From assembly GCA_023489235.1 (NCBI GenBank), contig JAMDDE010000012.1, positions 34,570 through 98,569 of the forward strand: a stretch of DNA of 64,000 nt, in the 5' to 3' direction. Source of the stretch: Actinomycetota bacterium (lineage in GTDB: Bacteria > Actinomycetota > Acidimicrobiia > Acidimicrobiales > JAMDDE01). A model generated the notes under the pieces. It saw nothing but the letters and a program-made list of their open reading frames with translations. It was not told the origin of the DNA and did not search any database. The translations under genes and the position numbers were made by a program. This document shows, in pieces, positions 26,065 through 61,000 of the stretch (the first letter of the stretch is position 1; the number at the start of each line of letters is the position of its first letter).

Positions 26065-27015
26065 GTGAGTGAGTTAGGAGCAACCCCAATCTTGTTCACT
26101 CCAACTGTTGCTGCCGACCAGGTGGTGAACAACCTTACCAATGATCAAGTAACTCTTGCCAAGCTGGAGAACCAACTTTCTACTGGCCACAGCATAAACC
26201 AACCCTCTGATAATCCTGCTCAGACAGTAAACATATTGAACTTGAAGGCGTCCGTAGCCAGGGCCAGCCAGTACGAAGCCAATGCCTCTGATGGTGAGGC
26301 ATGGCTCCAGACGGCCAATAGTGTCATGAACCAGATATTGAGTACCCTTCAGAATGTCCAGCAAGTAGTGCTCAGTGCTGATGCTCCCAATACCGTCAAC
26401 CAGGCATCGCTCGATGGCATGGCTTCGCAGGTCGGTGCAGCAAGACAGGCATTGTTGAACTTGGCTAATACGACCTATGGTGGTCAAGCAATTTTTGCAG
26501 GAACTGGTAGTCCCAGCCAGATCAACTCTGCCGGTGCCTATGATGCTGGCATAGCCTACGACTCGACTGGCAGGTATGTTGGAGGATCAAGTGTTCCAAC
26601 CAGGACAGTTGCTCCAGGAATATCCGTTCCTATAGCAGTAACTGGACCATCGGTGTTCGGTTCTGGAAGCTCAGGTTTGCTAGGCCCCAGTGGCATCTTG
26701 GCAACCATAGAAAGCGATCTCCGATCCGGTAATGTAAGCGCTGTTACCACCACAGATCTGTCCAACCTCAAGGCAGCTATCAACATGGTTCAAGATCAAG
26801 CAGCAATAGTCGGTGCCCAGTATCAGCGGATACAGACCTTGTCCGCTCAGGCTACCCAAACCAAACAGGCCTTGCAGACCGAACTTTCTGCAGTCAATGA
26901 CGTGAACCTTCCCAAAGCAGCCACAGAACTCCAGCAGCAGCAGAACTCTTATCAAGCAGCTTTATGGGCGGCTTCCCAGCTCGTTCCCATGTCATTAGTG
27001 GACTTTCTGTCATGA
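26065..27015 (+). CDS. flgL: flagellar hook-associated protein 3 (hook-filament junction)
   Basis: Flagellin-like N-terminus (LENQLSTGHSINQPSDNPAQ) and C-terminus (NLPKAATELQQQQNSYQAALWAASQL). It follows flgK. Confidence 0.88.
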   Translation: MSELGATPILFTPTVAADQVVNNLTNDQVTLAKLENQLSTGHSINQPSDNPAQTVNILNLKASVARASQYEANASDGEAWLQTANSVMNQILSTLQNVQQVVLSADAPNTVNQASLDGMASQVGAARQALLNLANTTYGGQAIFAGTGSPSQINSAGAYDAGIAYDSTGRYVGGSSVPTRTVAPGISVPIAVTGPSVFGSGSSGLLGPSGILATIESDLRSGNVSAVTTTDLSNLKAAINMVQDQAAIVGAQYQRIQTLSAQATQTKQALQTELSAVNDVNLPKAATELQQQQNSYQAALWAASQLVPMSLVDFLS

Positions 27016-27509
27016 GCCCGCTGCATCTATCTATCGTTGATGTCCGAGCCGAGGAGCTGGAAGCCAATAATTCGGAGAACAAGGGTGGTTCTTGGGCTGG
27101 AGAGAATGGACCTGTACTGCACTTTGTCGAAGGGATACCCGGTTTCCCTTCGGCGCGCCACTTTGTCGTAGTACCGCTTCCACCAGATCTTGAACCTTTT
27201 TGTCGTATTCGTTGTCTGGACGTGTCTGGCTTGGAGTTCGTGGTTGTTCCTCCTGGGCTATTGTTCGACAATTACAAAGTCGAGGTAGAGGATGAGGAGG
27301 TAGAACGGTTGGGCTTGACGACAGAAGAGGATGCAGTGGTGCTCGTCATTGTCACTCTAGCCCGATTACCCGCTGTGCCTACGGTGAATCTCTTGGGACC
27401 GTTGGTAATTAACAAGCGTACTATGACTGCTGCTCAGGTCATCCAACACACTTCAGGCTACGGTGTATCCGTGCCCATCCCTATGAGCTCGGTGGAGTCT
27501 GCGCTGTAG
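27012..27509 (+). CDS. fliW: flagellar assembly factor FliW
   Basis: FliW pattern: FVEGIPGFPSARHFVVVPL, PFCRIRCLD..GLEFVVVPP, VNLLGPLVINKRTMTAAQVI. The ATG at 27012 overlaps the flgL stop (ATGA). Confidence 0.85.
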   Translation: MSPLHLSIVDVRAEELEANNSENKGGSWAGENGPVLHFVEGIPGFPSARHFVVVPLPPDLEPFCRIRCLDVSGLEFVVVPPGLLFDNYKVEVEDEEVERLGLTTEEDAVVLVIVTLARLPAVPTVNLLGPLVINKRTMTAAQVIQHTSGYGVSVPIPMSSVESAL

Positions 27510-27523
27510 CTTGTTTGACCAGC

Positions 27524-27880
27524 TCAACTTTGAGGTTGAGGAGGTTGGCTACCTCCCCTGTCCACTACTACTTCGACTACATCGTCTTCGGCTGTACTCA
27601 GAGGAGATGGTTCAGGATGCTTGATTCTTGTCGTTCCTGAAGACCCGGAACGCTTCTCACCGAGGAACTCACCCAGACTGGAAAGATCACCGCCACTCGA
27701 TGATGCCGCCAAACGATTTGCTTGTTGTATGGCTTCATATACCTCCTGACGATGCACCTCTACATCACGCGGTGCCTCTATCCCCAGTCGTACATGGTCG
27801 CGATGAACCTCCAGCACGGTAACCACCACGTCGGCTCCTATGCGTATGCTCTCGTTTGATCGTCGACTCAGTACCAGCAC
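27524..27880 (-). CDS. csrA: carbon storage regulator CsrA with a long C-terminal extension
   Basis: (V)LVLSRRSNESIRIGADVVVTVLEVHRDHVRLGIEAPRDVEVHRQEVY aligns with the CsrA core. The GTG at 27880 is preceded by AAGGAGGAGG. About 55 extra low-complexity residues follow the core. The longer ORF-track N-terminus has no homology. Confidence 0.88.
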   Translation of the reverse strand: MLVLSRRSNESIRIGADVVVTVLEVHRDHVRLGIEAPRDVEVHRQEVYEAIQQANRLAASSSGGDLSSLGEFLGEKRSGSSGTTRIKHPEPSPLSTAEDDVVEVVVDRGGSQPPQPQS

Positions 27881-27974
27881 GGGCCTCCTCCTTGATGGCC
27901 ACGGTAAGGCAACGCTCGAAGCCACAGTGACGACGAGGTCATCTAAGTACCATTTAAGCAAGATAAATTATATC

Positions 27975-28107: not shown

Positions 28108-28135
28108 GCGTTATTCGGCAGGGACAGCGTTATCG
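28108..28135. repeat. copy 2 of the 28-bp direct repeat
   Basis: GCGTTATTCGGCAgggacAGCGTTATCG. It overlaps the stop codon and 3' end of the 127-aa membrane-protein gene. Confidence 0.75.
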
Positions 28136-28494
28136 CTGCTGGACGAAGAGGAAGAAGTGGCCGTTGAAGAAGGCGTGTTGGAGTGCTGAGCTATGGCGGA
28201 CTGCTCCTTCGGTAGAGCAGATGTAGGCATATCTGCAGGTTGAGTGGTGCTGTAGAGATTCTCGGCTTGGTTGATCCCTTTACTGCGCTCACTGCTCGCT
28301 TGGCGTTCCTTGCTGGCTGCATAATCCCTTATGACCTTGGATACGAGGGCTCCTCCTGCCCAGCAGAAGAGCAGCGCTATCAGAAAGCGAATCAGTGCAG
28401 TTTCGGTGGAGATGGAGCCACTCAACACCCCTGGGATCATTGGAGACGAAATAAGCACTGCTGCAGCTAGAACTAGCTCAGGGTGGCGAATCAC
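28111..28494 (-). CDS. hypothetical small membrane protein (two predicted TM helices, Ser-rich tail)
   Basis: GTG start preceded by GGGGGAAGGGAGA. Hydrophobic segments LVLAAAVLISSPMIPGVL and LIRFLIALLFCWAGGALV. It sits directly downstream of the FlhF-like gene on the same strand. I recognise no family. Confidence 0.5.
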   Translation of the reverse strand: MIRHPELVLAAAVLISSPMIPGVLSGSISTETALIRFLIALLFCWAGGALVSKVIRDYAASKERQASSERSKGINQAENLYSTTQPADMPTSALPKEQSAIAQHSNTPSSTATSSSSSSSDNAVPAE

Positions 28495-28556: not shown

Positions 28557-30221
28557 TCAGACGCTGATGCTTTCCTCCACGATCTCGCTATCTAAGGATA
28601 ATCTGGCGGCTATGAGAGCAGCCCACATCTCTGGGGTAGCCGGTTTGTTGTCGATCATGGCTACGGGTATACCCAACTCTAATATCTCCGCTGGCGAAGT
28701 TGTTGAATCAGTACCTGTGAGCACTAAAGCATCCAATGGCCCTAGATCGTTGGCCCAGTCGGCAATATCAGCCGTTTTGGTGGTGGCATCAACTATTCCC
28801 CATGTACTGGTTGCTTCGAGGGCATTCAGGACGTGGCGGGCCCATGAACGGTAGGGGCTGTTCACTGCCGCGGTCACTGCTACGATGATTGGGCTGCGAC
28901 GGCGCTTCCAAGATGCACGGCGTTCTATCGCAGCAGCAGCGGAGCGAATATACAACTGGGATGGTCCTTGCCAATCTTGATTTGGAGGTACTGCCAACTG
29001 GATTTCAGCGGGATCCAAGCCGAGCTTGTTCGCCAATAGAGTGGACAAGTGTTTAGCATGCTCGAAATGTCCCACCACAGCTAAAATAGCCTTTCCTGTG
29101 CGGGGTAAAGCTGGTGGAGGTGGTAGGTGGGCTGCCAAGGACTTGATCAACGCTGTGGATATATCAGTGGAGGTAGTGGCAGCAGAAAGCTCTGGAGTAG
29201 CAGATATGAGCTCTTGGGGTAATCCAATACGTGACAATTGGTCGAATAGGTGAGCAGATGGCGATGAGTCTTCTTTGCTCAGGTGGCTTTCTTCGTTTGG
29301 CTCATGCAGGAGCAGGAGAGATGCTTTGTCCTCTGGGGTGGAGTCCTCTGGGGTGGAGTCCTCTGGGGTGGTAGTTGGGAGCAATTCCTGCTCTGGATGA
29401 GCCTCCTCTATGTAGTCGGTAGCTACGCTGCTCCTGTTGTTGGAGGTGCCGTTGGTTGAGTCGCTGGTCTCCTTGACTGCTTCAAGGAGACCAGCCGATA
29501 TCTTGGAAGCCTCGGTGTCGTTTAGTTCATTGGATGCATTTACCGAGATGGAAGAGTCCTTGGCGAGCTGGCGCATGATCTCCTTGAATGGATGCTTTTC
29601 CGTGGAGATCTCCAGGTGATCATTGGTGTTCTCTGCCATGGCAGCGAGCATCTCTGCTGGGTTTGAATGGCCAATTTCTCGAGGAGCAGAATCATTTGGC
29701 TGAGCAGGATACGCTTGGTAGATATGGGCAGCTTTGGAGGAAGCGATAGCGTCGTAGCTATCCATACCCTTTTGAATTTGAACTGCTTCTTTTGCAGTTT
29801 CAGCTTTGGTTATTGAAGCCTTTGGAGGCTTGTTGTTGTTCTTCGCAACCTCCGCTGATCCGTCGAGGTCTTTGCTCCGTTCGGTTATCGTGTTGTTCTT
29901 CGCAACCTCCGCTGATCCAAGCTGTTTTTTTGGACGAGGTGAGTTCATTCGAGAAGTAAGTGAACGATTTCGTGAAGCACCACTCTCTGCATTCTTTGTG
30001 CTAGTACTCTTTTCCCCTTGATCTTTCCCGAGATCATTTGCGTTGTCGTCTGGAAGGCTTACTACCAGTTCGAATCTTTCCTTGGCAAAGAATCCTGCTA
30101 TGCCACCCTTGCGAACTCTGCCAGCATGAATGATACGAGCATCTTTACCGAGCTCTTTCCAGATACGATCGAACAGTTTCTCTAACGAAGGGCCCTCATA
30201 CAGGAGCTGTCTCGTCGACAT
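28557..30221 (-). CDS. FlhF-like protein with degenerate SRP-type GTPase motifs
   Basis: The N-terminus (LEKLFDRIWKELGKDARIIHAGRVRKGGIAGFFAKERFELVV) resembles the FlhF B-domain. The C-terminal ~190 aa align in order with the FlhF NG fold, but G1 is VVGHFEHAKHL (not GPTGVGKTT), G3 is IIVAVTAA (not DTAGR) and G4 is LTGTDST (not TKLDET). It lies immediately downstream of flhA. Confidence 0.6.
   Translation of the reverse strand: MSTRQLLYEGPSLEKLFDRIWKELGKDARIIHAGRVRKGGIAGFFAKERFELVVSLPDDNANDLGKDQGEKSTSTKNAESGASRNRSLTSRMNSPRPKKQLGSAEVAKNNTITERSKDLDGSAEVAKNNNKPPKASITKAETAKEAVQIQKGMDSYDAIASSKAAHIYQAYPAQPNDSAPREIGHSNPAEMLAAMAENTNDHLEISTEKHPFKEIMRQLAKDSSISVNASNELNDTEASKISAGLLEAVKETSDSTNGTSNNRSSVATDYIEEAHPEQELLPTTTPEDSTPEDSTPEDKASLLLLHEPNEESHLSKEDSSPSAHLFDQLSRIGLPQELISATPELSAATTSTDISTALIKSLAAHLPPPPALPRTGKAILAVVGHFEHAKHLSTLLANKLGLDPAEIQLAVPPNQDWQGPSQLYIRSAAAAIERRASWKRRRSPIIVAVTAAVNSPYRSWARHVLNALEATSTWGIVDATTKTADIADWANDLGPLDALVLTGTDSTTSPAEILELGIPVAMIDNKPATPEMWAALIAARLSLDSEIVEESISV
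29330..29371. repeat. 15-bp tandem repeat, 2.8 copies, in frame inside the FlhF-like gene
   Basis: CCTCTGGGGTGGAGT repeated; it encodes TPEDSTPEDSTPED on the minus strand. Confidence 0.9.
29834..29918. repeat. 28-bp direct repeat with 57-bp period inside the FlhF-like gene
   Basis: TGTTGTTCTTCGCAACCTCCGCTGATCC occurs at 29834-29861 and 29891-29918. It encodes the duplicated GSAEVAKNN segment. Confidence 0.9.
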
Positions 30222-32244
30222 CGCTCACCATTCCTACTCTTTCTATCCGTACTTGTGGACCAATCTCGTCAACAGACATTATCGCTACTCTTGGAACTGC
30301 AACTTTGAGCATCCTACGCAACGGGGGGCGCAGCTTTGGAGAGCATAAGAGGACTGGTTGGAAACCACGCTGCTCTGCTTGTTCGGCTAGTGTGCTTATT
30401 TCTCTTGCTAACTGTTCGGTGTGCGGTGCGTCAAGCACCAACACGCTTCCTTGTTCCGTGGGACGCACTGCCTCTAGCAAGCGCTGCTCCAAGGTGGCTT
30501 CCATGGTTATGACACGTAGTATGCCATTACTTGAATATCGCGCGGTGATTGCTGGTCCCAGAGCTCTTCGGGCCGCTTCGAGCAGAAGCTCAGGGTCTTT
30601 GCTAGAGCGAGCTTGATTGGTCACGGCCTCTACGATTCGCACGAAGTCTCGGATAGGGACACCTTCGTCGAGAAGCCCCGCCAACACCTTATGAAGTTCG
30701 GTCAAACTTACAGGAATCGCTGCCATCTCCTCTACTATGGCGGGATCACTTTGTTTTGCTGCATCGAGCAGTTGACGAACTTGTTGGATGGATAGGAGGC
30801 TCGCAGCGTACTCATTGATGATCTCACTCAGGTGAGTAGTGATCACCGATGAACGGTCCACCACGGTAGCACCTTGTACAATTGCCTGTTGACGCAGGTC
30901 AACAGGAACCCACTTTGCACTGAGACCGAATACAGGCTCTACGGTTGGTTCTCCAGGTAGGTAATCCAAGCCGTCTCCAATAGCAAGCACCCTTCCTGGT
31001 GGAGCACTACCGCGAGCTACTTCTACACCATGCACTTTGATCAAGTAGGTTCCCGGATCCAAGTTTACGTTGTCTCTAGTTCTCACTGAAGGGAGTATGA
31101 ATCCTTTGTCTACAGCTACCTTGCGTCTGAGCCCCTTCACCCTCTCCAGCAGGTCGCCTCCTCGAGCAGAATCGACTAGATCTATCAAGTCTATGGCCAG
31201 TTCCAGCTCTATCGCTTCCAGTTTCATCTCTCCTGCCAACACCTCTGGGGCATCTATTGCTGGAGGTGGAGGTGGCTCTGGTGCAGGAGGTTGAGCGTTC
31301 TGGAGCGAACGACTTGCCCTGTAGCCTACGATGAGCGCAATTGCCCCAACTACCAAGAAGGCCAGGTGAGGCAGGCCAGGGAGGAAGGCTAGCAACGCCA
31401 TCACGATACCAGCTACGCGTAGTGCTCGGTGCTGATTACGAAACTGTCCGATGAGGTCGGTACCGAAGTCTTCCTCTTCAGCGGCTGCTCTGGTTACCAC
31501 GATTCCAGTGGATATGGAGAGCAGCAAGGCTGGAATCTGGGAGACTAGGCCATCACCAATGGAGAGCAGGCTATAGGTATGAACTGCCTGTGACAAGCTC
31601 ATGTGTTTTTCGATGACACCAATGGCGAAACCGCCTATCAAATTGATGGCCACGATGACTACTGCTGCAATGGCATCGCCCCTTACGAACTTGGATGCCC
31701 CATCCATTGCTCCATAGAAGTCGGCTTCATCGGAGATCTCCTGTCTCCTCCTCTTCGCCTCGGCTTCATCGATCAAGCCAGCGTTCAGGTCGGCATCTAT
31801 TGACATCTGCTTCCCTGGCATGGCATCCAAAGTAAAACGAGCAGCTACCTCGGCTACTCGTCCAGATCCGTTGGTGACCACTACGAACTGGATGACTATC
31901 AGGATGAGAAAGACGACCAATCCGACTACCAGCGATCCGCCTACGACGAAATGGCCGAAGCTTTCGATTACTGTACCGGCGTAAGCATGTAGCAGTATCA
32001 ATCGAGTAGCACTTACGTTCAAGGCTAGGCGGAACATAGTAGCAACCAACAGCAAGGTCGGGAAAGCAGAGAAATCGAGCGGTCGCTTGACATGCATGGT
32101 GGTCAACAGGACCACTACTGTAAAAGTGATATTGCTGCTTATCAGCACGTCCAGCAGGACGGTGGGCATGGGGATGATAAGCATCACTACGATGGAGACC
32201 ACCGCAGCGGGTACCCCTATTATACCTATCTTGCTAGAAGACAT
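30196..32244 (-). CDS. flhA: flagellar type III export apparatus protein FlhA
   Basis: FHIPEP family: ISSNITFTVVVLLTT, FPTLLLVATMFRLALNVSATRLIL, GSGRVAEVAARFTLDAMPGKQMSIDADL, and a C-terminal cytoplasmic domain. Confidence 0.93.
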   Translation of the reverse strand: MSSSKIGIIGVPAAVVSIVVMLIIPMPTVLLDVLISSNITFTVVVLLTTMHVKRPLDFSAFPTLLLVATMFRLALNVSATRLILLHAYAGTVIESFGHFVVGGSLVVGLVVFLILIVIQFVVVTNGSGRVAEVAARFTLDAMPGKQMSIDADLNAGLIDEAEAKRRRQEISDEADFYGAMDGASKFVRGDAIAAVVIVAINLIGGFAIGVIEKHMSLSQAVHTYSLLSIGDGLVSQIPALLLSISTGIVVTRAAAEEEDFGTDLIGQFRNQHRALRVAGIVMALLAFLPGLPHLAFLVVGAIALIVGYRASRSLQNAQPPAPEPPPPPAIDAPEVLAGEMKLEAIELELAIDLIDLVDSARGGDLLERVKGLRRKVAVDKGFILPSVRTRDNVNLDPGTYLIKVHGVEVARGSAPPGRVLAIGDGLDYLPGEPTVEPVFGLSAKWVPVDLRQQAIVQGATVVDRSSVITTHLSEIINEYAASLLSIQQVRQLLDAAKQSDPAIVEEMAAIPVSLTELHKVLAGLLDEGVPIRDFVRIVEAVTNQARSSKDPELLLEAARRALGPAITARYSSNGILRVITMEATLEQRLLEAVRPTEQGSVLVLDAPHTEQLAREISTLAEQAEQRGFQPVLLCSPKLRPPLRRMLKVAVPRVAIMSVDEIGPQVRIERVGMVSDVDETAPV

Positions 32245-32491: not shown

Positions 32492-34876
32492 TCAGGTCTT
32501 CAAGGAGGATTGCCTGGTGCTTAGAGGAGGGTAGTAATTGGCTTCCAGCAGCTTCGAGTTGAAATCAGGCCACAGTATACCGATGCTCGCTTCCACCGAT
32601 ACTCTTTCCGTCTCGTCGATGAGTCGCAATGCCTCCGCCAGCAGTTGGATCGCAGATTCATCACCGAAGGACCCTACTATAGTGGCTGCACACACAGCTC
32701 GTTCGACTGGATGACGCCTTGTGTCAACTGCCATGGCAGTAAGCGGACAGGACTGTACCAACCCGTATGCACGAAGTCGTGAAGACCAAACCAGTGCACG
32801 AGCTATCGGTAGCTCAGGTGCAATTCGTGCAGCTGTGGCCAGAATGGACAGCATCTCTGGCCACTTGGCGTACAGTGCTTCCAGTAATATGTCTGCTCGC
32901 TGGGGGTGAATGGTAACGAGTTGAGCCAGGAAGGGTACGAGGTTCTTCTTGGGGAGCACCTCCACCATCTCGGTTATGTCTCTCCTAGCCGCTATGAGCA
33001 GCTCTATTAGATCGTTCAGGCTAGTATCCAGGATTCCTTCCTTTGCCAGTAGGGACAATAGTACATTGGCAGCTTCATCGGGTCTTCCGATCATGGCTAG
33101 AGCCTTTGAGCGCAGAGCAGTGGTAGAGTCAGCGAGGTACTCAAAACCGTCCTCATCTATAATTTTTTCAGGTAGCCTATCCAAGAGGGAGAGAGCTTCT
33201 TCGGGGCGACCCAAGTTGATCAGCACCCTAGCCTCCAAGGCATCCGTATAGGCTGGCGTGGAAGTGGACTCTCGAAGCCTTTTTATCCAAGAAAGAGCAT
33301 CCTCCGAACGATTGGAGAGGATGCAGGCCTCTATTCCTGCCCTGAGCGCTACTCTGATGACGATGGGGTAGTCCTTTATGAGGGCTATCCCTTCCTCCAG
33401 GATCGTTGTTGCCTCTCTCAACCCCTCTTCGGTGCCCACCCCTACGATGGTACGACCCAAGTTAACCAAAGCAATACCACGCTCTGCGGGGGTCCTTGCT
33501 CTTTCCACTGCAGCCTTGGCTATGGCAAGGTTGCGTTCTAGTTTGTTGCGAGTAGCAAGCATGTGGTTCAGATAGCCGTAGTGAGTTATGCGTAGCTCAG
33601 AGGTCATAGCTACTCCGAGGGCACGTTTGTTACCCTTGGCCATGAGGTACTCATGTAGGGTGCCCACCCATTCACCAGCTTGAGCTCGGAACAAGCGACA
33701 GGCTGTGTGCACTGACTTGGAGTTGGCTCCCGTTCCCGTGAGGTTGTCTATAGCGACTATGAAACCTTCCACCTCTCTAGGTTGTAGAGCAAGAGAGTGC
33801 CTCAATGAAGTCTTGTCAGGGCATTCCAAGGTCTCGTCGGCATCCATCCAGAGGATCCACTCTCCCCGGCAATGTTTCAATGCTTCGTTCCTTGCTCGTG
33901 CGAAATCATCGTCCCAGTACCCTTCTATGACCTTTGCACCTTGTGAACGAGCTATCTCTTTGGTGGAGTCGGATGAGCCCGTATCGTAGAGAACGATCTC
34001 GTCAACGAAATCATCCATGGATGCTATACAGTCAGGCAAGGACCTCTCTTCATCTTTGGCAATGAGACAAGCGGAGACTAAAGGTGCAGGAGAATGGGGG
34101 GGTGGGGTTCCATGGGAGCTCCGGTAACTAAGCATGCTCTCTTGTTGAGCAGTAAACCAGTCGATGCCATTGGCTTGAAAACTGCTATGCCCCTCGTGGT
34201 ATATGAAGACATCCTCTGTCACTACCAAGTTCCACCCTTTGAGAGCAAGCTCAGATGACAAAATTTCATATTCGAATCCATACCTGCCTGGCTCTCCAAC
34301 GAAACCCCCTACAGCTTCGAAAGCACTTCTTCGTACGGCAATACACGGTTCAGCCAGGTATTCCACTCCCCTGAGGGAGGCGTGGTGCAAGCGGGCCCAA
34401 GCAGTACTGGCTTCGCGTAACTGAGCCAGATCTCCTGCAAGGCAAGAGACTCCTCGTGCAAGTTGCATTGTAGAGGAGGTGTAGTTGGACATTCCTCCTG
34501 TTGCAGCAACATCTGCATCTGCAAAGGGAGCGATCAGTCGATCCAGCCATCGAGGGGGCACCAGGGTGTCGTTATGCAAGAAGACGACTATCTCGGATGA
34601 GCTTACCTCTATGGCTTGGTTGCAAGCGGCAGCAAATCCAAGATTGTTGTCATTGGACACGACCTTGACCCAAGGGTAGAAATGGAGGCGCTTTCCTGTC
34701 TCGTCACCTGATCCGTTGTCCACGACTACCACCTCGTCATCGGGGGATATGGTGGCACGTAATGAGTCCAGGCATGCCTGGGTAGCTTTCCAAGCGTTCC
34801 AGACAGGGATGACTATGGTTGCCCTCTTAGGTCTGTGTCCACTACTTGCTCGAGCGCGCCTCTGCTTGTCCACCAA
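32492..34876 (-). CDS. three-module glycosyltransferase: GT2 + GT2 + TPR-like helical repeats
   Basis: Module 1: TIVIPVWNAWKATQACLDSL...VVVVDNGSGDETG...NLGFAAACN. Module 2: SACLIAKDEERSLPDCIASM...VLYDTGSSDST...WILWMDADE. The C-terminal ~330 aa are helical repeats of TPR type. Confidence 0.8.
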   Translation of the reverse strand: MVDKQRRARASSGHRPKRATIVIPVWNAWKATQACLDSLRATISPDDEVVVVDNGSGDETGKRLHFYPWVKVVSNDNNLGFAAACNQAIEVSSSEIVVFLHNDTLVPPRWLDRLIAPFADADVAATGGMSNYTSSTMQLARGVSCLAGDLAQLREASTAWARLHHASLRGVEYLAEPCIAVRRSAFEAVGGFVGEPGRYGFEYEILSSELALKGWNLVVTEDVFIYHEGHSSFQANGIDWFTAQQESMLSYRSSHGTPPPHSPAPLVSACLIAKDEERSLPDCIASMDDFVDEIVLYDTGSSDSTKEIARSQGAKVIEGYWDDDFARARNEALKHCRGEWILWMDADETLECPDKTSLRHSLALQPREVEGFIVAIDNLTGTGANSKSVHTACRLFRAQAGEWVGTLHEYLMAKGNKRALGVAMTSELRITHYGYLNHMLATRNKLERNLAIAKAAVERARTPAERGIALVNLGRTIVGVGTEEGLREATTILEEGIALIKDYPIVIRVALRAGIEACILSNRSEDALSWIKRLRESTSTPAYTDALEARVLINLGRPEEALSLLDRLPEKIIDEDGFEYLADSTTALRSKALAMIGRPDEAANVLLSLLAKEGILDTSLNDLIELLIAARRDITEMVEVLPKKNLVPFLAQLVTIHPQRADILLEALYAKWPEMLSILATAARIAPELPIARALVWSSRLRAYGLVQSCPLTAMAVDTRRHPVERAVCAATIVGSFGDESAIQLLAEALRLIDETERVSVEASIGILWPDFNSKLLEANYYPPLSTRQSSLKT

Positions 34877-41870: not shown

Positions 41871-42719
41871 ATGGCCGGGGTCACCTCTAGTGGAATAGCG
41901 AACTTGAACAGGACTAGTCCCATAGATGAGCTGAGATCGAGGGCTCTGAATGCTGGTCGTGCCTTCCTGGGGGTCAACACGGTTGCAGCGAGGAGCAGGG
42001 TCATGACCTTGAACGCACAACTGGCTGCTTCCAAGCTGGGGACCCGGGGTGCTGCCTTCAATGTCGTGGCACAGGCTTTGGATGAGGTTGTGGGCAGGCT
42101 TACTGAACTGGTTGGAGCGGTAGAGAGGGGAAGGGCCACTGTCATAGGGGGAGTGGCCCGGTTCACTCAGATGGAGAACCAGCTCAAGCTTTATGGACGT
42201 GCCTTGGGCAGGGTATCCGAGCAGGGATCTGCTGTTGGAGTCTCCCTGGAGGATGCTTTGGATCCAACTAGCGGCAATCGATGGAAGGAGGCATTGGGGA
42301 AGTCTTCGGATCGATCCATAGAGGCTTTTCTATGGGGAGCCTTGCTGAGCTTGCGTGAAGAGATGTTGAATACTTTGGGCGATATCCGAAGCGCCACCAA
42401 GTCACTGGTTCATTTGATAGAACAGGTGGAGGTGTTGGCCGCCTCGCACGGATTCTTCATTGGTATCAATGGGGTGATCGAGGCTGCCTATGTGCGCCAG
42501 GAAGAGCTGGTGCAGTTGGCCAAGGATCTTCGTTCGTTGACGGACGAGATAAACCAAGCTGTGGCATCGGCGAGCCAGGAAACCAAGATGTTGAAGAGAC
42601 TTGCTGATGCTGCTGGTGGAGTACTTCATATAGAGAGCAGTACGAGCTATGTGGGTCGTACGGAAAGAGCTGTTGATGGTATCAATCAGCTATCGGAGAC
42701 AGGGAGGATCAGTCGATGA
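41871..42719 (+). CDS. soluble protein with divergent MCP-signalling-tip-like motifs (mini-receptor candidate)
   Basis: RSRVMTLNAQLAASKLGTRGAAFNVVAQALDEV keeps the spacing of the MCP hairpin tip [31 protein letters not shown] second, weaker copy is IGINGVIEAAYV...LAKDLRSL. There is no TM segment. The ATG at 41871 has an AAGGAGGG SD. Confidence 0.45.
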   Translation: MAGVTSSGIANLNRTSPIDELRSRALNAGRAFLGVNTVAARSRVMTLNAQLAASKLGTRGAAFNVVAQALDEVVGRLTELVGAVERGRATVIGGVARFTQMENQLKLYGRALGRVSEQGSAVGVSLEDALDPTSGNRWKEALGKSSDRSIEAFLWGALLSLREEMLNTLGDIRSATKSLVHLIEQVEVLAASHGFFIGINGVIEAAYVRQEELVQLAKDLRSLTDEINQAVASASQETKMLKRLADAAGGVLHIESSTSYVGRTERAVDGINQLSETGRISR

Positions 42720-43456
42720 TCAACGAGGTCTTGTTCGATAACGGGGTCAGGCGTTGGCAGTTCATAGGTAGGGATGCCGATAGACCCAGTGAACTGATTG
42801 ATACCAACGAGTACTTGGTTACCAACAACGGTAAAGGGCTGATACCTGATCCGGGGGGTATGGAGATATTTCCCGCTGTGGTAACAGCTATATCCGAGGA
42901 GTTCGCCGTTGACAATGTAGAGGTGCTGTTCGCCTCTCATCAGGACCCAGACGTATTCTCTTCCTTGGGACTATGGGTCAAGGTTTGTCCTGGAGCAGCA
43001 GTGTGGCTCTCCCGGATATGGGAGAAGTTCATGAGTCATTTCAGCTTTGGCACCAAGTTTCACTTGATCCCCGACGAAGGAGGGGTTTTGCCTTTGGGCG
43101 GAAGCAATGATTTACAGATCATCCCTGCTCACTACCTTCACTCATCCGGCAACTTTTCCATCTACGACCCTCAAGCCAAGATCCTGTGGAGCGGAGACAT
43201 AGGAGCTGCTCTCCTCCCACCAGATCACAGCGGGGTGTTCGTGAGTGATTTCTATGAGCATACCAAGTACATGGAGGGGTTCCATCGTCGCTGGATGCCC
43301 TCCCCTCAAGCACGAGATGCTTGGATAGCGCGAGTGAGCAGACTGGAGATAGACATGATCTGCCCACAGCACGGTGCCATCATTCGTGGCGAAGATGTAC
43401 ACCGGTTCTTTCAGTGGTTCTCCGAGCTGGAGTTGGCCAGCGCATTGCATATATGA
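42716..43456 (+). CDS. metallo-beta-lactamase-fold protein resembling the flavodiiron core / ODP family
   Basis: Ordered motifs of the MBL/di-iron fold: ASHQDPD (position of HxExDH), PAHYLHSSG, LWSGDIG, CPQHGAII. It has no flavodoxin domain. The ATG overlaps the stop of the preceding gene (ATGA). Confidence 0.55.
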   Translation: MINEVLFDNGVRRWQFIGRDADRPSELIDTNEYLVTNNGKGLIPDPGGMEIFPAVVTAISEEFAVDNVEVLFASHQDPDVFSSLGLWVKVCPGAAVWLSRIWEKFMSHFSFGTKFHLIPDEGGVLPLGGSNDLQIIPAHYLHSSGNFSIYDPQAKILWSGDIGAALLPPDHSGVFVSDFYEHTKYMEGFHRRWMPSPQARDAWIARVSRLEIDMICPQHGAIIRGEDVHRFFQWFSELELASALHI

Positions 43457-47153: not shown

Positions 47154-49745
47154 CTACTTGGTCATGGCAAGCACGGACAAGCGTCGGTAGGCTATCTCGG
47201 CCGCGTGCTTCCAGGTGAACTCCGAGGTGATGGTTTCTCTGGCTCTAGCGCCAATCTCTCTTGCCTCCTCAGGATATGCAATCACATGCTGCAGTGTTGC
47301 CTTGAGTTCTCTACGATCCGGTTCGTACCAGCGATAGCCACCCAGAGTGGATGGAGGAAAATCACTGATGGAGGTGGGTCGCTCGAAGGCAGGGATAAGA
47401 TAGGCGTTGTCTTCCCTGCAGAAGTCCATAGCCCCTCCCTTTCCAGTGGCGATCACCGGCAATCCTGACGACATCGCCTCAGCTATGGGCAGTCCGAAAC
47501 CTTCCCCCCGATAGGGGGATACGAGCACGTCACAGCTTCTATACAGGCTGGCCAACTCCTCCTCTCCGAGGTCTTGGTCGATGAGCTCGATTTCAGGGAG
47601 GGTAGGGTCCTTGGATGCTTGGTACAGCATCTTGGCGAAGTTGCCTCGTCGGTAGAGTGTATCCACACCGAATGCCTTTATCACCAGGCAGACATCGCTT
47701 GCAGGAGCGAAAGTGGCCACATAGGCATCCAGCAGCACGTCAATTCCTTTGCGCGCAATTGGACCACCTACGAACAAGAATTTGTATGACCTCTTGGTGG
47801 AGAGGGGGTACGAGCTTCCCTCTGGTTTGAACAGCTCTGTATCGACCCCATTTGGCACTACGTAGACCTTCGATTCATCCACGCCGGATCGTACGTATTG
47901 TTCCTTGACCCAGCTCGATGGGCACCACACCTCATCGGAGTAGGTGTTCAACCCTCTCACCCAAGCTTCGGGTACCCCAATGAACTCCCACGGCTGAATG
48001 GTGACCAATCGTCCATTCCTAGGAGGCGAGAAGTACGGAGGGAATCGATGGCGTACCTCTATGTTCGCTTGGCCGGGATCTCCAAAAGAATAGTGGATTG
48101 CCTGATCCGTCCCATCCCCCTCTCCATCCCTGTGGTTCGTCTCTGGCCTCCCCCTCTGTTCATGGCTTACTTCTAGCCGATGATCGTCTCGGGTTGGAAA
48201 GTCTTTCGTATTCGAGGGAGTTGGTGATTCCTTCGTAGCGTGATGGACGGCCACTCCAAGTTTGACAAGGGCTTTGCCCAGTTCACGGTTGACCCGAGCC
48301 AAACTGTGATGAGCATACACGTCACCAACCCATTTGACGGCTATCGGTGGAGTCGAGCTGGTCCAGGACGGCTCTGTCATTGAAGCTCTTGTTGATACAG
48401 CAGTTCTTCTGCCGTGGAGTTCTTTGGAGATCTCTTTCAGACGAGATTTGGCTAAGTTGGATACAGCCTCCCAGGTGAAGTTGGTTTCTATGTCTTTTCT
48501 GGCCTGTTTGGAGATGGAGTTGAGCCACTTCGGCCTCTTGGCGGTGAAACGGAACAACTCCACCAGGTGATCCTTGGAGGGCTTGGCCCAGCGCTGACCG
48601 TAGTATTGCTCCATGTCCATGCGATCTTCAACTTGGACTAGCCCCTCCGTATCGAGCAACAATGAGTTGTGGTCATTCATGTACTCCAAGTTGCCGCTCC
48701 ATCGGGTGGCTATTACTGGCAGTCCACAGGCCATGGCCTCCATCTGTGGTCGGCCATAGCCCTCTCCCCTGGAAGGAGCTACGTATATGTCAGCAGTTGC
48801 CATCAAACGGACGAGTTCATGAGGGGAGAGAGATCGATGTATTAAAATGATCGGGGCTACCGAGGCGCGTTCCAAGTTCATCCGCTTCAGCTCAGCTGCA
48901 ATGGCAGCTTCAATTTGTTTTGCCGCGTCAGCTGAGGACTTCCAGTTTCGTGGATAGCAGTGCAGGAGCAGGCAGACGTCGTCACTTGGCTTGAATGCTT
49001 CTGCCCAGGCTTCCAGCAGCACGTCGTATCCTTTGCGCAAGCTCCATTGGAAGACGGAGAGGTAAACAGTGCTTCGTAGCCCTGGGATGGGCAAAGGGGG
49101 GCGTCCTGGCCTGAAACGGTTGGTGTCCACTCCTCCTGGAACTACGTAGATTGGCACCTCGACGCCTGAGCGCTTGAAGGTCTCTTGGTTGAAGTGAGAG
49201 GGAACCCACACCTCGTCTACCGAGTTGAGCGTTACTATCCATGGCTCAGGCAGTCCGTCGGTCTCGAACATGGTTCTTGCCACCACGTACTCGAGGCCCC
49301 ATGCGTCCTCATAGGCTACATGCACATCAGGGGGCGCATGTACGATAGCGACAGGAGAGGGTTGGTCTCCCTGACTCACTGATTCGATGAGGAGCTTGGC
49401 CGACCCAGGATCGTCACGTTGGAGAGCGATGCTCATTCCCTCCAGTTCTTTGGTGAATGATCGTGCTCTCAGTGGGTAGCCAACTCTACGAAGTCCAGTT
49501 ACAAACCCCCTGGCCTCTTCGGAGTATCCGCTCCAATCCCATAGAGGACCTATCCAAACAGCCTCCTCCAACCGTTCTCTGGTCTTTGCGTTGCTGAGGT
49601 TTGTGGATGCTTTAGGTAGCCGTTTCTCCAGCCGTTCCATGCCCCTTGTGTTGCTGACCGAGGTGCGACTTCTTGGGTTCTTGGGTGACAAGGCTGGCTC
49701 GGTCATCTCTTGTTCCTCGGTCATCTCTTGTTCGGTCTCGGACAT
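47154..49745 (-). CDS. double GT-B (family 1/4-like) glycosyltransferase
   Basis: It has two complete 'glycosyl transferase group 1' signatures: SRGEGYGRPQMEAMACGLPVIAT and YRGEGFGLPIAEAMSSGLPVIAT. Confidence 0.85.
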   Translation of the reverse strand: MSETEQEMTEEQEMTEPALSPKNPRSRTSVSNTRGMERLEKRLPKASTNLSNAKTRERLEEAVWIGPLWDWSGYSEEARGFVTGLRRVGYPLRARSFTKELEGMSIALQRDDPGSAKLLIESVSQGDQPSPVAIVHAPPDVHVAYEDAWGLEYVVARTMFETDGLPEPWIVTLNSVDEVWVPSHFNQETFKRSGVEVPIYVVPGGVDTNRFRPGRPPLPIPGLRSTVYLSVFQWSLRKGYDVLLEAWAEAFKPSDDVCLLLHCYPRNWKSSADAAKQIEAAIAAELKRMNLERASVAPIILIHRSLSPHELVRLMATADIYVAPSRGEGYGRPQMEAMACGLPVIATRWSGNLEYMNDHNSLLLDTEGLVQVEDRMDMEQYYGQRWAKPSKDHLVELFRFTAKRPKWLNSISKQARKDIETNFTWEAVSNLAKSRLKEISKELHGRRTAVSTRASMTEPSWTSSTPPIAVKWVGDVYAHHSLARVNRELGKALVKLGVAVHHATKESPTPSNTKDFPTRDDHRLEVSHEQRGRPETNHRDGEGDGTDQAIHYSFGDPGQANIEVRHRFPPYFSPPRNGRLVTIQPWEFIGVPEAWVRGLNTYSDEVWCPSSWVKEQYVRSGVDESKVYVVPNGVDTELFKPEGSSYPLSTKRSYKFLFVGGPIARKGIDVLLDAYVATFAPASDVCLVIKAFGVDTLYRRGNFAKMLYQASKDPTLPEIELIDQDLGEEELASLYRSCDVLVSPYRGEGFGLPIAEAMSSGLPVIATGKGGAMDFCREDNAYLIPAFERPTSISDFPPSTLGGYRWYEPDRRELKATLQHVIAYPEEAREIGARARETITSEFTWKHAAEIAYRRLSVLAMTK
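49698..49733. repeat. perfect 18-bp tandem duplication at the 5' end of the GT-B gene
   Basis: CTCGGTCATCTCTTGTTC x2; it encodes the duplicated EQEMTE. Confidence 0.95.
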
Positions 49746-49748
49746 CTC

Positions 49749-51389
49749 TCAGTCATCCTCTATGACCTCGGCTTTGCTGTAGGCATCCATGAAGTTCATC
49801 AGCGTACTCGTAGCAGGTGCATTCGAGGCAAATGAATTGAACAGGGCGGTATTCTCCGGAGAAGGCAGTCGAGAGAGGAGGGTCTGTAGTTCTTCGAGGA
49901 TGGAGTCAGTGATGGATGTAAGTTCTTTGCCGGCAACGGCCAAGAAGGATGGACCAGGTTCATCTGGGACAGGTCTGGGTGACCGAGCTCCGGTTGCTCT
50001 CTCGGGTAAGATGATACCCTCTTCCCAGTGCGTTGTTCTCCTTGCCAGCGCTTCCAGCTGCTTTTTGGTGAATCTCCAACCCGGATCGACGAAGCAGAGC
50101 CATTGACCGAGCGCTAGTACAACTGCAGTGACGATTGCAGCTGGTGTGCCGAGAGGATAACGGTTGCGAATGGCCAACACGTCACCGGACAAGTTGTCTA
50201 ACAGGTATTGAGTGGCATCATTGGAAGCATCGTCCACTATGAGTACTTCGAAATCAAGTTCGCTAGGCAGTACATTTGCTAGAGACTCCAATGAGCCGAG
50301 CAGCGAAGGAGCTTGGTTCCTGGAGACGAGGACAAATGAGATGCGCACCTCTTCTAGCTCATATTCCACCGATGGATTGGCACCATTCATTGCTTCGACG
50401 GTCGTTTTCGATGCAGAGAGGTAGTCGGGTTCGACCGGGTATGGAGATATACCACTTGGCACACGGTGATCGTGGTTTGGTGCTGCTCGATCGTGACCGA
50501 GAGTAGTTCTCGACAGAGCAGCTTCGCCTATCCCCAGTTGGTCCACGAGCGTTCGGAGCTCTTTCTTCAAGGCTTTTTGCTTTTCCCTGTTCATCGAGGG
50601 ATAAAGGGATTGCAGCGCAGTCATACTCCGTAAATCGCCAAGTGCAGTGCTGGCCAAGAGAGCGGCCATAGTGCGTTCACTGGTCTTCGTGCTCGGGTTC
50701 CCAGCCTTGGCCAGAAGTGGGCTCTCGTTGTAGAAGCCTTCCCCATGGAGCCTGATCGACCAGGTGAAGGTCCTCTGGAGAGGAAGTCGGCTGGCCAGCT
50801 TGGCAGCTGCAGCCAGTACGGTCAGGCGGTTGGGGAAGGTGTTGAAGCAAGCTTCCAGGAAGCGGTCGCCTCTCTCTGGTTGCATATGGAGCACCTGAGA
50901 TAGTATCGTCTTTTGCTTGCTCCAAGGAATTAGGTTCACCACCTCCTCGTAGCTCCTATTGGAGTTATCGAGGGATTCAAGTGCTAGTTCGAGGCAATCG
51001 AATGCTCCTTCCCTGTCGAAACGCTCGATCAAGGCATCTGCTGCTTCGGAATAACGGCCCACTTCTACTAGAGCCTTCGCCCTAGAACAAGCCAGCAACA
51101 GTTTTGGGTCGTAGGAGAATCCTTCGTCGTCCAGAGCATTTTCCGGCAGCTCCTCCATGAACTCGAGGGCTTCCTCGAAGTGCAAGGAGGTGACGAGAGC
51201 CCAGCAGTACAGCAGGTCAGCTGTTATTTGTTCATTGCTCATCTCCCTGAGTCGACTGATCCATTTGATTGCCTCCCGCCCGAGCCCTAGCTGGAGGAAC
51301 CGTTGGACGAGGGCGACAACGAGCTGACGCTGCTTGGCAACCTCCTTGGTCCTGGCCAGACGCTCGAGGTAGGAATCTACTTGGTACAT
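49749..51389 (-). CDS. TPR-repeat protein fused to a C-terminal GT2 glycosyltransferase domain
   Basis: The N-terminal ~330 aa are TPR-like helical repeats. The C-terminal part reads ISFVLVSRNQAPSLLGSLESL...FEVLIVDDASNDAT. It ends 3 nt before the start codon of the downstream GT-B gene (47154-49745). Confidence 0.8.
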   Translation of the reverse strand: MYQVDSYLERLARTKEVAKQRQLVVALVQRFLQLGLGREAIKWISRLREMSNEQITADLLYCWALVTSLHFEEALEFMEELPENALDDEGFSYDPKLLLACSRAKALVEVGRYSEAADALIERFDREGAFDCLELALESLDNSNRSYEEVVNLIPWSKQKTILSQVLHMQPERGDRFLEACFNTFPNRLTVLAAAAKLASRLPLQRTFTWSIRLHGEGFYNESPLLAKAGNPSTKTSERTMAALLASTALGDLRSMTALQSLYPSMNREKQKALKKELRTLVDQLGIGEAALSRTTLGHDRAAPNHDHRVPSGISPYPVEPDYLSASKTTVEAMNGANPSVEYELEEVRISFVLVSRNQAPSLLGSLESLANVLPSELDFEVLIVDDASNDATQYLLDNLSGDVLAIRNRYPLGTPAAIVTAVVLALGQWLCFVDPGWRFTKKQLEALARRTTHWEEGIILPERATGARSPRPVPDEPGPSFLAVAGKELTSITDSILEELQTLLSRLPSPENTALFNSFASNAPATSTLMNFMDAYSKAEVIEDD

Positions 51390-59998: not shown

Positions 59999-61000
59999 AT
60001 GAAGCTGACAGGACCTCAGAAGGCAGCTGCCATGTTGGCCCAGATGGGCATGTACGAAGCGGCCAAAGTACTCAAGTCGATGACCGAGAACGAGGTTGTC
60101 GACTTGATGGCCGAAATGGCCAAGTTGCCTCCTCTCTCACCGGAGACGGTGAAGAGCGTGGTGCGCGAGTTCGTGGAGAGAGCTACGGCAAGAGCGATGG
60201 TAGGCCAAGGGGGAGTGGATGCAGCTAGGAAGCTGTTGGTGGAGAGACTTGGTCCCGCAAAGGCGAACGAGGTATTGGAGCAGTTCGCGGTAGCCGATGT
60301 AGCTCGCCCCCTCTCCTTCCTGCAGCGTTTGGATCCGGTGCAGGTGGCTAGCTTCTTGTTGGACGAGCATCCTCAGACCATAGCAGTGGTGTTAGCGCAT
60401 CTTCCTCCGGAGCATACTGCTCAGATCCTGAAGGAGCTGGGCGAGGAGTTGAGGGTAGAGGTGGTGCGACGGATAGGGATGATGAACAGAGTATCACCTC
60501 AAGTGGTAGAGAACATTGCCGAGGTGCTCTCGAGGAAGCTCTCCACTCTAGTACGAGCGGGAGGCGTGGGATTTGCCGTTGGCGGGGTCCCTGCCTTGGT
60601 AAGCATCTTCAACAATATCGACCGTTCTTCCGAGCGCCAGATCCTCTCCGATCTGGAGGAGAGGGATCCCGAGCTAGCCGATGAAGTTCGCAGCCAGCTG
60701 TTCGTCTTCGACGACGTGGTCAAGCTGGATGATCGTACTTTGCAACGAGTCCTGCGGAACGTCGTCATCAAGGATCTAGCAGTGGCCTTGAAGGGGGTCG
60801 AACCGGAGGTACGAGAGAAGTTCATGCGAAACATGTCGGAACGGGCAGCAGCGGATCTAGCTGAGGAGATAGAGCTTCTAGGGCCTACTCGTATCTCAGC
60901 TGTGGAGGCTGCCCAAGCTGGCATAGGCAAGCTGGTACGGGAGATGGAGGCAGCAGGCGAGATCGTCATAGCAAGGGGAGAAGATGAGCTGGTGGTCTGA
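59999..61000 (+). CDS. fliG: flagellar motor switch protein FliG
   Basis: TGPQKAAAMLAQMG...AAKVLKSM N-terminus, EHPQTIAVVLAHL motif, and C-terminal MSERAAADLAEEIE...GPTRISAVEAAQ. Confidence 0.93.
   Translation: MKLTGPQKAAAMLAQMGMYEAAKVLKSMTENEVVDLMAEMAKLPPLSPETVKSVVREFVERATARAMVGQGGVDAARKLLVERLGPAKANEVLEQFAVADVARPLSFLQRLDPVQVASFLLDEHPQTIAVVLAHLPPEHTAQILKELGEELRVEVVRRIGMMNRVSPQVVENIAEVLSRKLSTLVRAGGVGFAVGGVPALVSIFNNIDRSSERQILSDLEERDPELADEVRSQLFVFDDVVKLDDRTLQRVLRNVVIKDLAVALKGVEPEVREKFMRNMSERAAADLAEEIELLGPTRISAVEAAQAGIGKLVREMEAAGEIVIARGEDELVV

Follow-up and report, generated by a model that had tools for sequence, protein, structure and literature searches.

The gene at positions 28557–30221 (minus strand) of a 64,000-nucleotide stretch of contig JAMDDE010000012.1, from an actinobacterium of the order Acidimicrobiales, is derived from the flagellar gene flhF and is referred to here as flhF*; the whole stretch is called the window. 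According to its open reading frame (ORF) and translation, flhF* codes for a protein of 554 amino acids, a putative pseudo-GTPase, with the stop codon at 28557–28559. We consider it probable that flhF* derives from FlhF by vertical inheritance, that its NG domain of the signal recognition particle (SRP) type has turned into a pseudo-GTPase, and that its product tethers FliG at the membrane; this reading explains the data best. A first-pass annotation of the window had proposed a candidate pseudo-GTPase. Its proposal is supported, since both outcomes which it had named as contradicting it are excluded: the profile alignment revealed no intact G1–G4 motifs elsewhere in the protein, and the modelled C-terminus has an NG fold that is closest to that of FlhF. 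The earlier reading nevertheless needs widening, from a single gene to a clade-level family of single origin with a conserved membrane neighbour.

Fold and motifs of the FlhF-derived protein

FlhF, represented by the models TIGR03499 and PF00448 and by the structures 2PX0/2PX3 (Bacillus subtilis), 8R9R and 9EN1, is the third SRP-type GTPase. With FlhF, flhF* shares the position after flhA, the sequence pattern of the N-terminal FliG-interacting domain (FID), a long, probably disordered linker, an NG fold that matches FlhF best, and a TTKxxD block after strand beta-4. It differs from FlhF by the family-wide absence of G1, G3 and G4, a shortened G2/insertion box, additional invariant tryptophans plus the motif SWRRR, a TIGR03499 score of 41 versus 174 bits and the lack of a PF00448 match; moreover, FlhG is missing and the adjacent gene codes for a small two-pass membrane protein.

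Residues 321–554 (28560–29261, minus strand) constitute the SRP-type NG-like domain without nucleotide motifs, as indicated by AlphaFold2, Foldseek and hhalign. No Pfam family, PF00448 included, was detected anywhere in the protein, nor was PF00448 at this position of the genome; searches of the PDB with sequences and profiles recovered the FID alone, and the kinship of the NG domain emerged via profile–profile and fold comparison. In an hhalign comparison of the flhF* family with 15 canonical FlhF proteins of basal Actinomycetota, the full-length profiles aligned with a probability of 98.4% (E 1e-14), and the C-terminal domain alone (residues 320–554) with 90.4% (E 1.4e-6). When the C-domain profile was compared with single sequences, FlhF proteins (E 0.004–0.06) ranked ahead of the genome's own Ffh and FtsY (E 0.1–0.4); these values are weak and serve for ranking only. 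AlphaFold2, supplied with an alignment of 86 sequences, modelled residues 320–554 with a predicted local distance difference test (pLDDT) score of >90. The best Foldseek match of this model in the PDB was the NG domain of FlhF from Shewanella putrefaciens (8R9R; E 1.8e-9, probability 1.0, target TM-score 0.63), followed by the NG domains of SRP54, Ffh and FtsY; B. subtilis FlhF (2PX0) was also among the matches. The suggestion of the first-pass annotation that the C-terminus follows the order of an SRP-type NG domain is thus borne out by the model, the Foldseek match and the profile alignment.

The same profile alignment placed the degenerate motifs exactly where they had been proposed, i.e. 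GHFEHAKH, VTAA and TGTD in place of G1, G3 and G4. The segment VVGHFEHAKH is paired with GPTGxGKT (G1), VAVTAAVNSP with IDTAGRSP (G3), and LVLTGTDSTTSP with IFTKLDETTTPG. The G1 remnant GHFEHAKH (residues 384–391; 29049–29072, minus strand) retains G384 as the sole conserved position; the G3 remnant VTAA (residues 449–452; 28866–28877, minus strand) corresponds to a family consensus V[DE]AP; and the G4 remnant TGTD (residues 502–505; 28707–28718, minus strand) has lost the specificity lysine. The G2/insertion-box segment, where a helix would be expected, carries a deletion of 13 residues in the family. By contrast, the FlhF-type TTKxxD block is kept: VDATTKTAD aligns with the FlhF block LSxTTKxSD, and K482 and D485 are nearly invariant. 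A hidden P-loop elsewhere in the protein was ruled out, as GK[ST] does not occur at any position of its sequence.

The loss extends to the whole family. Motifs were scored in two alignments, one of 115 cluster representatives and one of 86 sequences (mostly ORFs from the loci described below), together 201 members; GK[ST] at G1, DxxG at G3 and [NT]KxD at G4 were found in 0/115 and 0/86 of them. G384 is invariant, and the seven positions that follow it (385–391) vary freely in charge and size. From these sequences, neither a GTP-dependent homodimer nor GTP hydrolysis would be expected for the flhF* protein.

Despite the loss of the nucleotide motifs, the fold appears to be conserved under selection. 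W438, R440, W460, W474, K482, D485, W489, G494, D497, T507, P510, P519 and W533 are nearly invariant in the C-domain, identity of which amounts to 35–47% across classes, and the ORF is intact in all of the 80 loci analysed. A non-catalytic fold under purifying selection would be expected to show such a pattern. Pseudo-GTPases, that is, GTPase folds devoid of nucleotide motifs, have been described mainly for eukaryotic Ras-like domains. The flhF* protein resembles them in that a fold under purifying selection has lost its catalytic and binding motifs and presumably serves as a scaffold, but unlike the known examples it is a bacterial protein of the SRP/SIMIBI class.

At the N-terminus, residues 1–55 (30057–30221, minus strand) represent the FID of FlhF, which confirms the earlier assignment of a B-domain to the first 55 amino acids. 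TIGR03499, the NCBIfam model of FlhF, aligns at residues 8–150 only (E 1.8e-10), and its score of 41.3 bits remains below the curated cut-off of 174.15 bits. The family profile matched a single solved chain in the PDB, namely 9EN1, the 53-residue FID of Shewanella FlhF (E 0.013), and residues 3–55 were aligned by hhalign to canonical FlhF with high confidence. Seven FID positions (G25, R37, G39, G40, G43, F44 and F45) are conserved to at least 90% across the family.

The two domains are connected by a linker (residues 56–320; 29262–30056, minus strand) which, as the first-pass annotation had described it, is acidic (pI 4.85), of low complexity (71% S/T/P/A/N/E/D/K) and internally duplicated. 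It contains 46 acidic (D+E) versus 29 basic (K+R) residues and is modelled as disordered (pLDDT of about 40–65); within it lies one conserved helix around F212, a residue that is conserved to at least 90%. The sequence GSAEVAKNN occurs twice, at residues 102–110 and 121–129 (29835–29918, minus strand), and a 15-nucleotide tandem unit present in 2.9 copies at 29328–29371 (minus strand; Tandem Repeats Finder, 100% matches, score 88) encodes TPEDS repeats. The protein P0005 from another assembly is otherwise 100% identical to the flhF* protein, albeit with exactly one copy fewer of each linker repeat; the difference reflects either a population polymorphism or an assembly collapse.

Distribution, descent and loss of FlhG

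When 1.84 billion cluster representatives (50% identity) were searched exhaustively with HMMER, at least 1,427 family members were obtained at E ≤1e-3, of which 251 reached E ≤1e-30; GxxGxGK[ST] was present in none of the best 150 representatives. Their database name is "hypothetical protein" throughout. At the level of loci, a five-sequence query alignment sharing GG[IV]AGFFAKE matched 239 genomes (one genome per species), the best 80 of which were analysed. All named genomes among these best 80 are Actinomycetota, comprising Actinoplanes, Couchioplanes, Krasilnikovia, Spirilliplanes, Planobispora, Planomonospora, Geodermatophilus, Blastococcus, Modestobacter, Motilibacter, Pengzhenrongella, Egibacteraceae and Acidimicrobiales. 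In Geodermatophilaceae (Geodermatophilus, Blastococcus, Modestobacter, Goekera), flhF* codes for 700–1,659 amino acids, as compared to 413–590 amino acids for complete copies elsewhere in the sample; the last 280 codons of these long copies (L022, L036, L052, L054, L076, L077, L087, L090, L094–L096) were used for alignment.

In the window, the start codon of flhF* lies 26 nucleotides ahead of the stop codon of flhA (30196–32244, minus strand; PF00771, E 1.8e-250), which codes for the flagellar type III export gate. Direct inspection of the junction verified this 26-nucleotide overlap between the 3' end of flhA and the start of flhF*, and with it the position directly after flhA that the first-pass annotation had noted. 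The arrangement is widespread: flhA is located directly upstream of flhF* in 71 of the 80 loci, with an overlap of 20–23 nucleotides in about 65, and the other nine loci are situated at or near a contig end or have a split or interrupted flhA/flhF* region. Among 121 genomes of the class to which the window belongs, 17 were FlhA-positive, and matches to the flhF* family occurred in 15 genomes, every one of them FlhA-positive; 12 of these matches covered both the FID and the C-domain. The gene adjoined flhA in all but one genome, G401, where its halves are on separate contigs and the N-terminal half alone is beside flhA.

For the NG region, a maximum-likelihood tree was calculated from 37 degenerate and 15 canonical sequences, with the genome's own Ffh and FtsY as outgroup. 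All FlhF-type sequences grouped together, apart from Ffh and FtsY (SH-aLRT 99), and within FlhF the degenerate sequences formed a single clade (SH-aLRT 99), the stem of which measures 2.23 substitutions per site. Branching inside this clade mirrors taxonomy, which fits a single loss with vertical descent thereafter; owing to the long branches, it is uncertain which group is the exact sister. On the evidence of these sequences, flhF* appears to be a clade trait of flagellated, later-branching Actinomycetota rather than a quirk of one genome.

The degenerate and canonical states also differ with respect to FlhG. The assembly analysed (2.17 Mb, 93% complete) contains two PF00448 matches, Ffh and FtsY, and no canonical FlhF was found in it by the PF00448 search. 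FlhG, defined as a deviant-Walker-A ATPase with an N-terminal DQAxxLR activator helix, was detected neither at the locus nor in the rest of the 93%-complete genome, in agreement with the missing partner reported by the first-pass annotation. The deviant Walker A motif KGGxGK[ST] is carried by five proteins of the genome. Judging from size, order and Pfam assignment, four of them look like ParA, an Mrp-like protein and, from two ArsA-like tandem pairs, one member apiece; the fifth, a MinD/CooC-like ATPase on contig C65, was rejected as FlhG because its gene adjoins a CO-dehydrogenase gene, suggesting a CooC-like role. The DQAxxLR helix is absent from the N-terminus of all five.

Within 8 kb of flhF*, an ORF with KGGxGK[ST] occurred in 0/80 loci. 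Canonical FlhF, scoring above the TIGR03499 cut-off, was found in 14 of 401 sampled Actinomycetota genomes, and in 14/14 of these loci flhG (KGGVGK[ST] plus DQAxxLR) is located directly downstream and overlaps the 3' end of flhF. The contrast between 14/14 canonical and 0/80 degenerate loci indicates that the loss of FlhG is coupled to that of the GTPase motifs. The FlhF–FlhG pair of basal Actinomycetota (L097–L110) shares with flhF* the phylum, the FID and the place after flhA, and is its sister in the tree, with the reservation made above; unlike flhF*, it keeps GPTGxGKT, DTAGR and TKLD as well as an FlhG with DQAxxLR. The flhF* protein descends from FlhF, yet lacks what defines an FlhF GTPase, namely the motifs, a score above the model cut-offs and the FlhG partner.

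One genome, G131, encodes an FlhF (L127, 9465–10826, plus strand) in which the motifs GQSGVGKT, DTAGR and TKLD are intact (PF00448, E 8.9e-23) and the FID (GGIGGFFGR) resembles that of the flhF* family. Its gene follows flhB–flhA, and the next gene codes for a PilZ-domain protein instead of FlhG. This FlhF possibly represents a transitional form that links the canonical to the motif-less state.

Candidate membrane partner and proposed function

In most loci, the stop codon of flhF* is followed within a few bases by the start of an ORF of 72–127 amino acids with two hydrophobic helices. The one in the window (28111–28494, minus strand) begins 62 nucleotides past flhF* and codes for a two-pass membrane protein of 127 amino acids without any Pfam family, a candidate membrane anchor. 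A hidden Markov model (HMM) built from 13 such small ORFs, including that of the window, matched 77 of the 80 loci, always on the same strand and just downstream of flhF*, at a distance of ≤60 nucleotides in 61 loci and beyond an intervening gene in 15. The other 12,848 six-frame frames of the 80 loci gave 0 matches; the small gene was found neither elsewhere in the genome under study nor beside canonical FlhFs, for which about 1.5 kb on each side was covered. This co-localization suggests that the small two-pass protein is a likely partner of the flhF* protein. In the three loci tested against Pfam, the intervening gene coded for a PilZ/YcgR-like protein of about 220 amino acids. These insertions (L050, 9296–9958; L078, 9269–9940; L043, 9463–10113) occur in Streptosporangiaceae, Motilibacteraceae and some metagenome-assembled genomes.

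The small protein is reminiscent of FipA of gamma-proteobacteria, likewise a small membrane protein which is encoded close to flhF, found only together with flhF, and consists of one transmembrane helix and DUF2802 (PMC11620751). However, two transmembrane helices rather than a single N-terminal one are predicted in most of the actinobacterial proteins, a cytoplasmic DUF2802 is lacking, and sequence similarity to FipA is not detectable; homology to FipA was rejected because of the missing DUF2802. Furthermore, FipA co-occurs with FlhG, while the actinobacterial protein occurs in place of FlhG.

In canonical systems, the first 44–60 residues of FlhF bind FliG, which lets FliG capture FliF; binding of the FID to FliG has been demonstrated for Shewanella FlhF, the NG domain of which binds HubP regardless of nucleotide, and the FlhF cycle is reset by FlhG-stimulated hydrolysis (PMC11236974). 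FipA recruits FlhF in gamma-proteobacteria (PMC11620751). By analogy, we infer that the flhF* protein is likely to function as a nucleotide-independent tether of FliG at the membrane, with a role in flagellar placement and number. It would still act early in flagellar assembly: the FID would hold FliG so that FliG can capture FliF, and the pseudo-NG domain would be a docking module that does not need a nucleotide and fixes the complex at the membrane, most plausibly via the small two-pass protein as a functional analogue of FipA or HubP docking. Since there is neither a GTP switch nor FlhG, other factors would have to release FliG and to control flagellar number, possibly competition by FliM/FliN, the protein level, or the neighbouring CsrA–FliW and PilZ regulators.

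Several observations weigh against the proposed descent and tether function. The Foldseek TM-scores are moderate (0.57–0.63, with root-mean-square deviations of 4.5–5 Å), suggesting that the pseudo-NG domain has been remodelled, and single-sequence AlphaFold prediction reached a pLDDT of 42, with the FID lacking a confident model. Contact between FID and FliG is extrapolated from Shewanella and Pseudomonas, and in P. aeruginosa the FlhF–FliG interaction is reportedly regulated by GTP binding (PMC12713375); a nucleotide-free flhF* protein might hence bind FliG differently, or constitutively. The evidence that links flhF* to the small membrane protein is solely the order of the genes. Finally, in five FlhA-positive relatives, two of them from the order to which the window belongs, the gene after flhA codes for a clear FID (E 1e-11 to 1e-20) followed by a shorter C-terminal part which the C-domain model of the family does not recognise (L130, 2033–2971, plus strand; L131, 2961–4058, minus strand; L132, 2068–3204, plus strand; L133, 2081–3154, plus strand; L134, 2061–2963, plus strand). 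Hence, not all genomes require the pseudo-NG domain; as far as the sequences tell, the FID appears to be the constant element, and the pseudo-NG domain to be common, but not universal. In L132–L134 and in the protein P0010, this part shares the ending ...LGYGTVD...VDVALAIRxLVGRR; it looks like a further-derived or replaced domain.

The overlap of flhF* with flhA in nearly all loci, the location of the flhA–flhF* pair apart from the main flagellar operon (flhB is about 45 kb away) and an SRP-family ancestry, which would suit a part in the insertion of membrane proteins, would also be compatible with another role: rather than placing flagella or tethering FliG, the protein, with FID and NG shell retained, would serve the export gate FlhA as an assembly factor or chaperone, its pseudo-NG domain docking on FlhA or on the nascent export apparatus. 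We regard such a role as unlikely. The order flhA–flhF is ancestral, being seen with canonical FlhF as well, so that synteny of flhA and flhF* says nothing specific; moreover, the FID is the most conserved part in all variants, and its only known ligand is FliG (PMC11236974).

Still less probable, in our estimation, is a pseudo-NG domain which binds a nucleotide or another small ligand via a non-canonical pocket and operates as an unusual switch. Invariance of G384 at the former start of the P-loop and near-invariance of K482, D485 and D497 would be in line with such a pocket, and some eukaryotic pseudo-GTPases do still bind nucleotide. However, 0/201 aligned members have the Walker A lysine/threonine, the seven variable positions past G384 do not preserve a charge or size, G4 has lost its lysine and G3 its glycine, the G2/insertion box is shorter by 13 residues, and the GTPase activator FlhG has been lost. 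The notion that flhF* is a functionless, decaying relic of flhF, retained through the overlap with flhA alone, is hardly credible: the complete loss of catalytic motifs, the long stem branch, the gain and loss of linker repeats and the relatives consisting of an FID plus unrelated sequence might be taken as decay, but a pseudogene was rejected on the grounds of conservation, i.e. the intact ORFs in 80/80 loci, at least 1,427 clusters with 35–47% C-domain identity across classes and many invariant residues, a fold predicted with high confidence from co-variation, and a tree that tracks taxonomy as under purifying selection and vertical descent.

In the textbook view, flagellar place and number are controlled by a switch consisting of FlhF and FlhG, and current models rest on GTP-driven dimerisation and FlhG-stimulated hydrolysis. 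Against this background, a large lineage with a predicted FliG-binding head and an NG shell, but devoid of GTP-binding motifs and FlhG, would amount to a natural separation-of-function experiment, which could reveal which parts of FlhF can work without a nucleotide cycle. Somewhat more doubtfully than the tether model itself, and with slightly less than even confidence, we suggest that later-branching Actinomycetota build and place their flagella by means of a nucleotide-free FlhF and a dedicated two-pass membrane protein that replace the FlhF-GTP/FlhG-ATP switch. The SRP/SIMIBI class would thereby gain its first pseudo-GTPase, and flagellar placement a second solution, which is switch-less, of single origin and maintained in hundreds of species.

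Literature searches retrieved no publication joining the term pseudoGTPase with SIMIBI or FlhF, and no description of the flhF* family was found when FlhF was combined with pseudo-GTPase or SIMIBI, or with Actinoplanes and further genera of motile actinomycetes. A 2025 review of FlhF–FlhG diversification mentions neither Actinobacteria nor degenerate forms. In a survey of actinobacterial flagella published in mBio in 2023, FlhF is scored as absent in the later classes (PMC10746217), an inventory that is corrected by the present data. Both flhF* and the small membrane gene, so far "hypothetical", become flagellar candidates that are accessible to tests in tractable species such as Actinoplanes missouriensis.

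Flagellar genes surrounding flhF* in the window

The string flhA–flhF*–small membrane gene is closed by csrA (27524–27961, minus strand; PF02599, E 2.7e-23). Its ORF comprises 145 codons, with the CsrA domain at residues 29–80 and a long Ser/Gly/Pro-rich C-terminal tail. The gene of its partner, fliW (26964–27509, plus strand), converges on csrA. Homologues of csrA are present in 6 of the 80 loci, mostly within about 1 kb downstream, and at about 3.6 kb in one. On the opposite strand, flgN, flgK, a flagellin-like flgL and fliW converge toward the flhF* string.

Farther along the window, there are a chemotaxis cluster and a fliF–fliG–fliH–fliI operon, in which fliG (59999–61000, plus strand; PF01706, E 1.1e-39 at 60650–60970) codes for the predicted target of the FID. 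The short, separate operon flhA–flhF* is about 45 kb distant from flhB (C26:109122–110135), the last gene of the main flagellar operon, which is located near the end of the same contig. Chemotaxis genes, including one for an ODP di-iron protein (42716–43456), lie in between.

Large glycosyltransferases are encoded at several positions of the flagellar region. A gene for a GT2 plus TPR glycosyltransferase is located directly upstream of flhA (32492–34876, minus strand), and large GT4 and GT2 enzymes are encoded at 47154–49745 and 49749–51389 (both minus strand), within the flagellar/chemotaxis region. These enzymes are candidates for glycosylation of flagellin.

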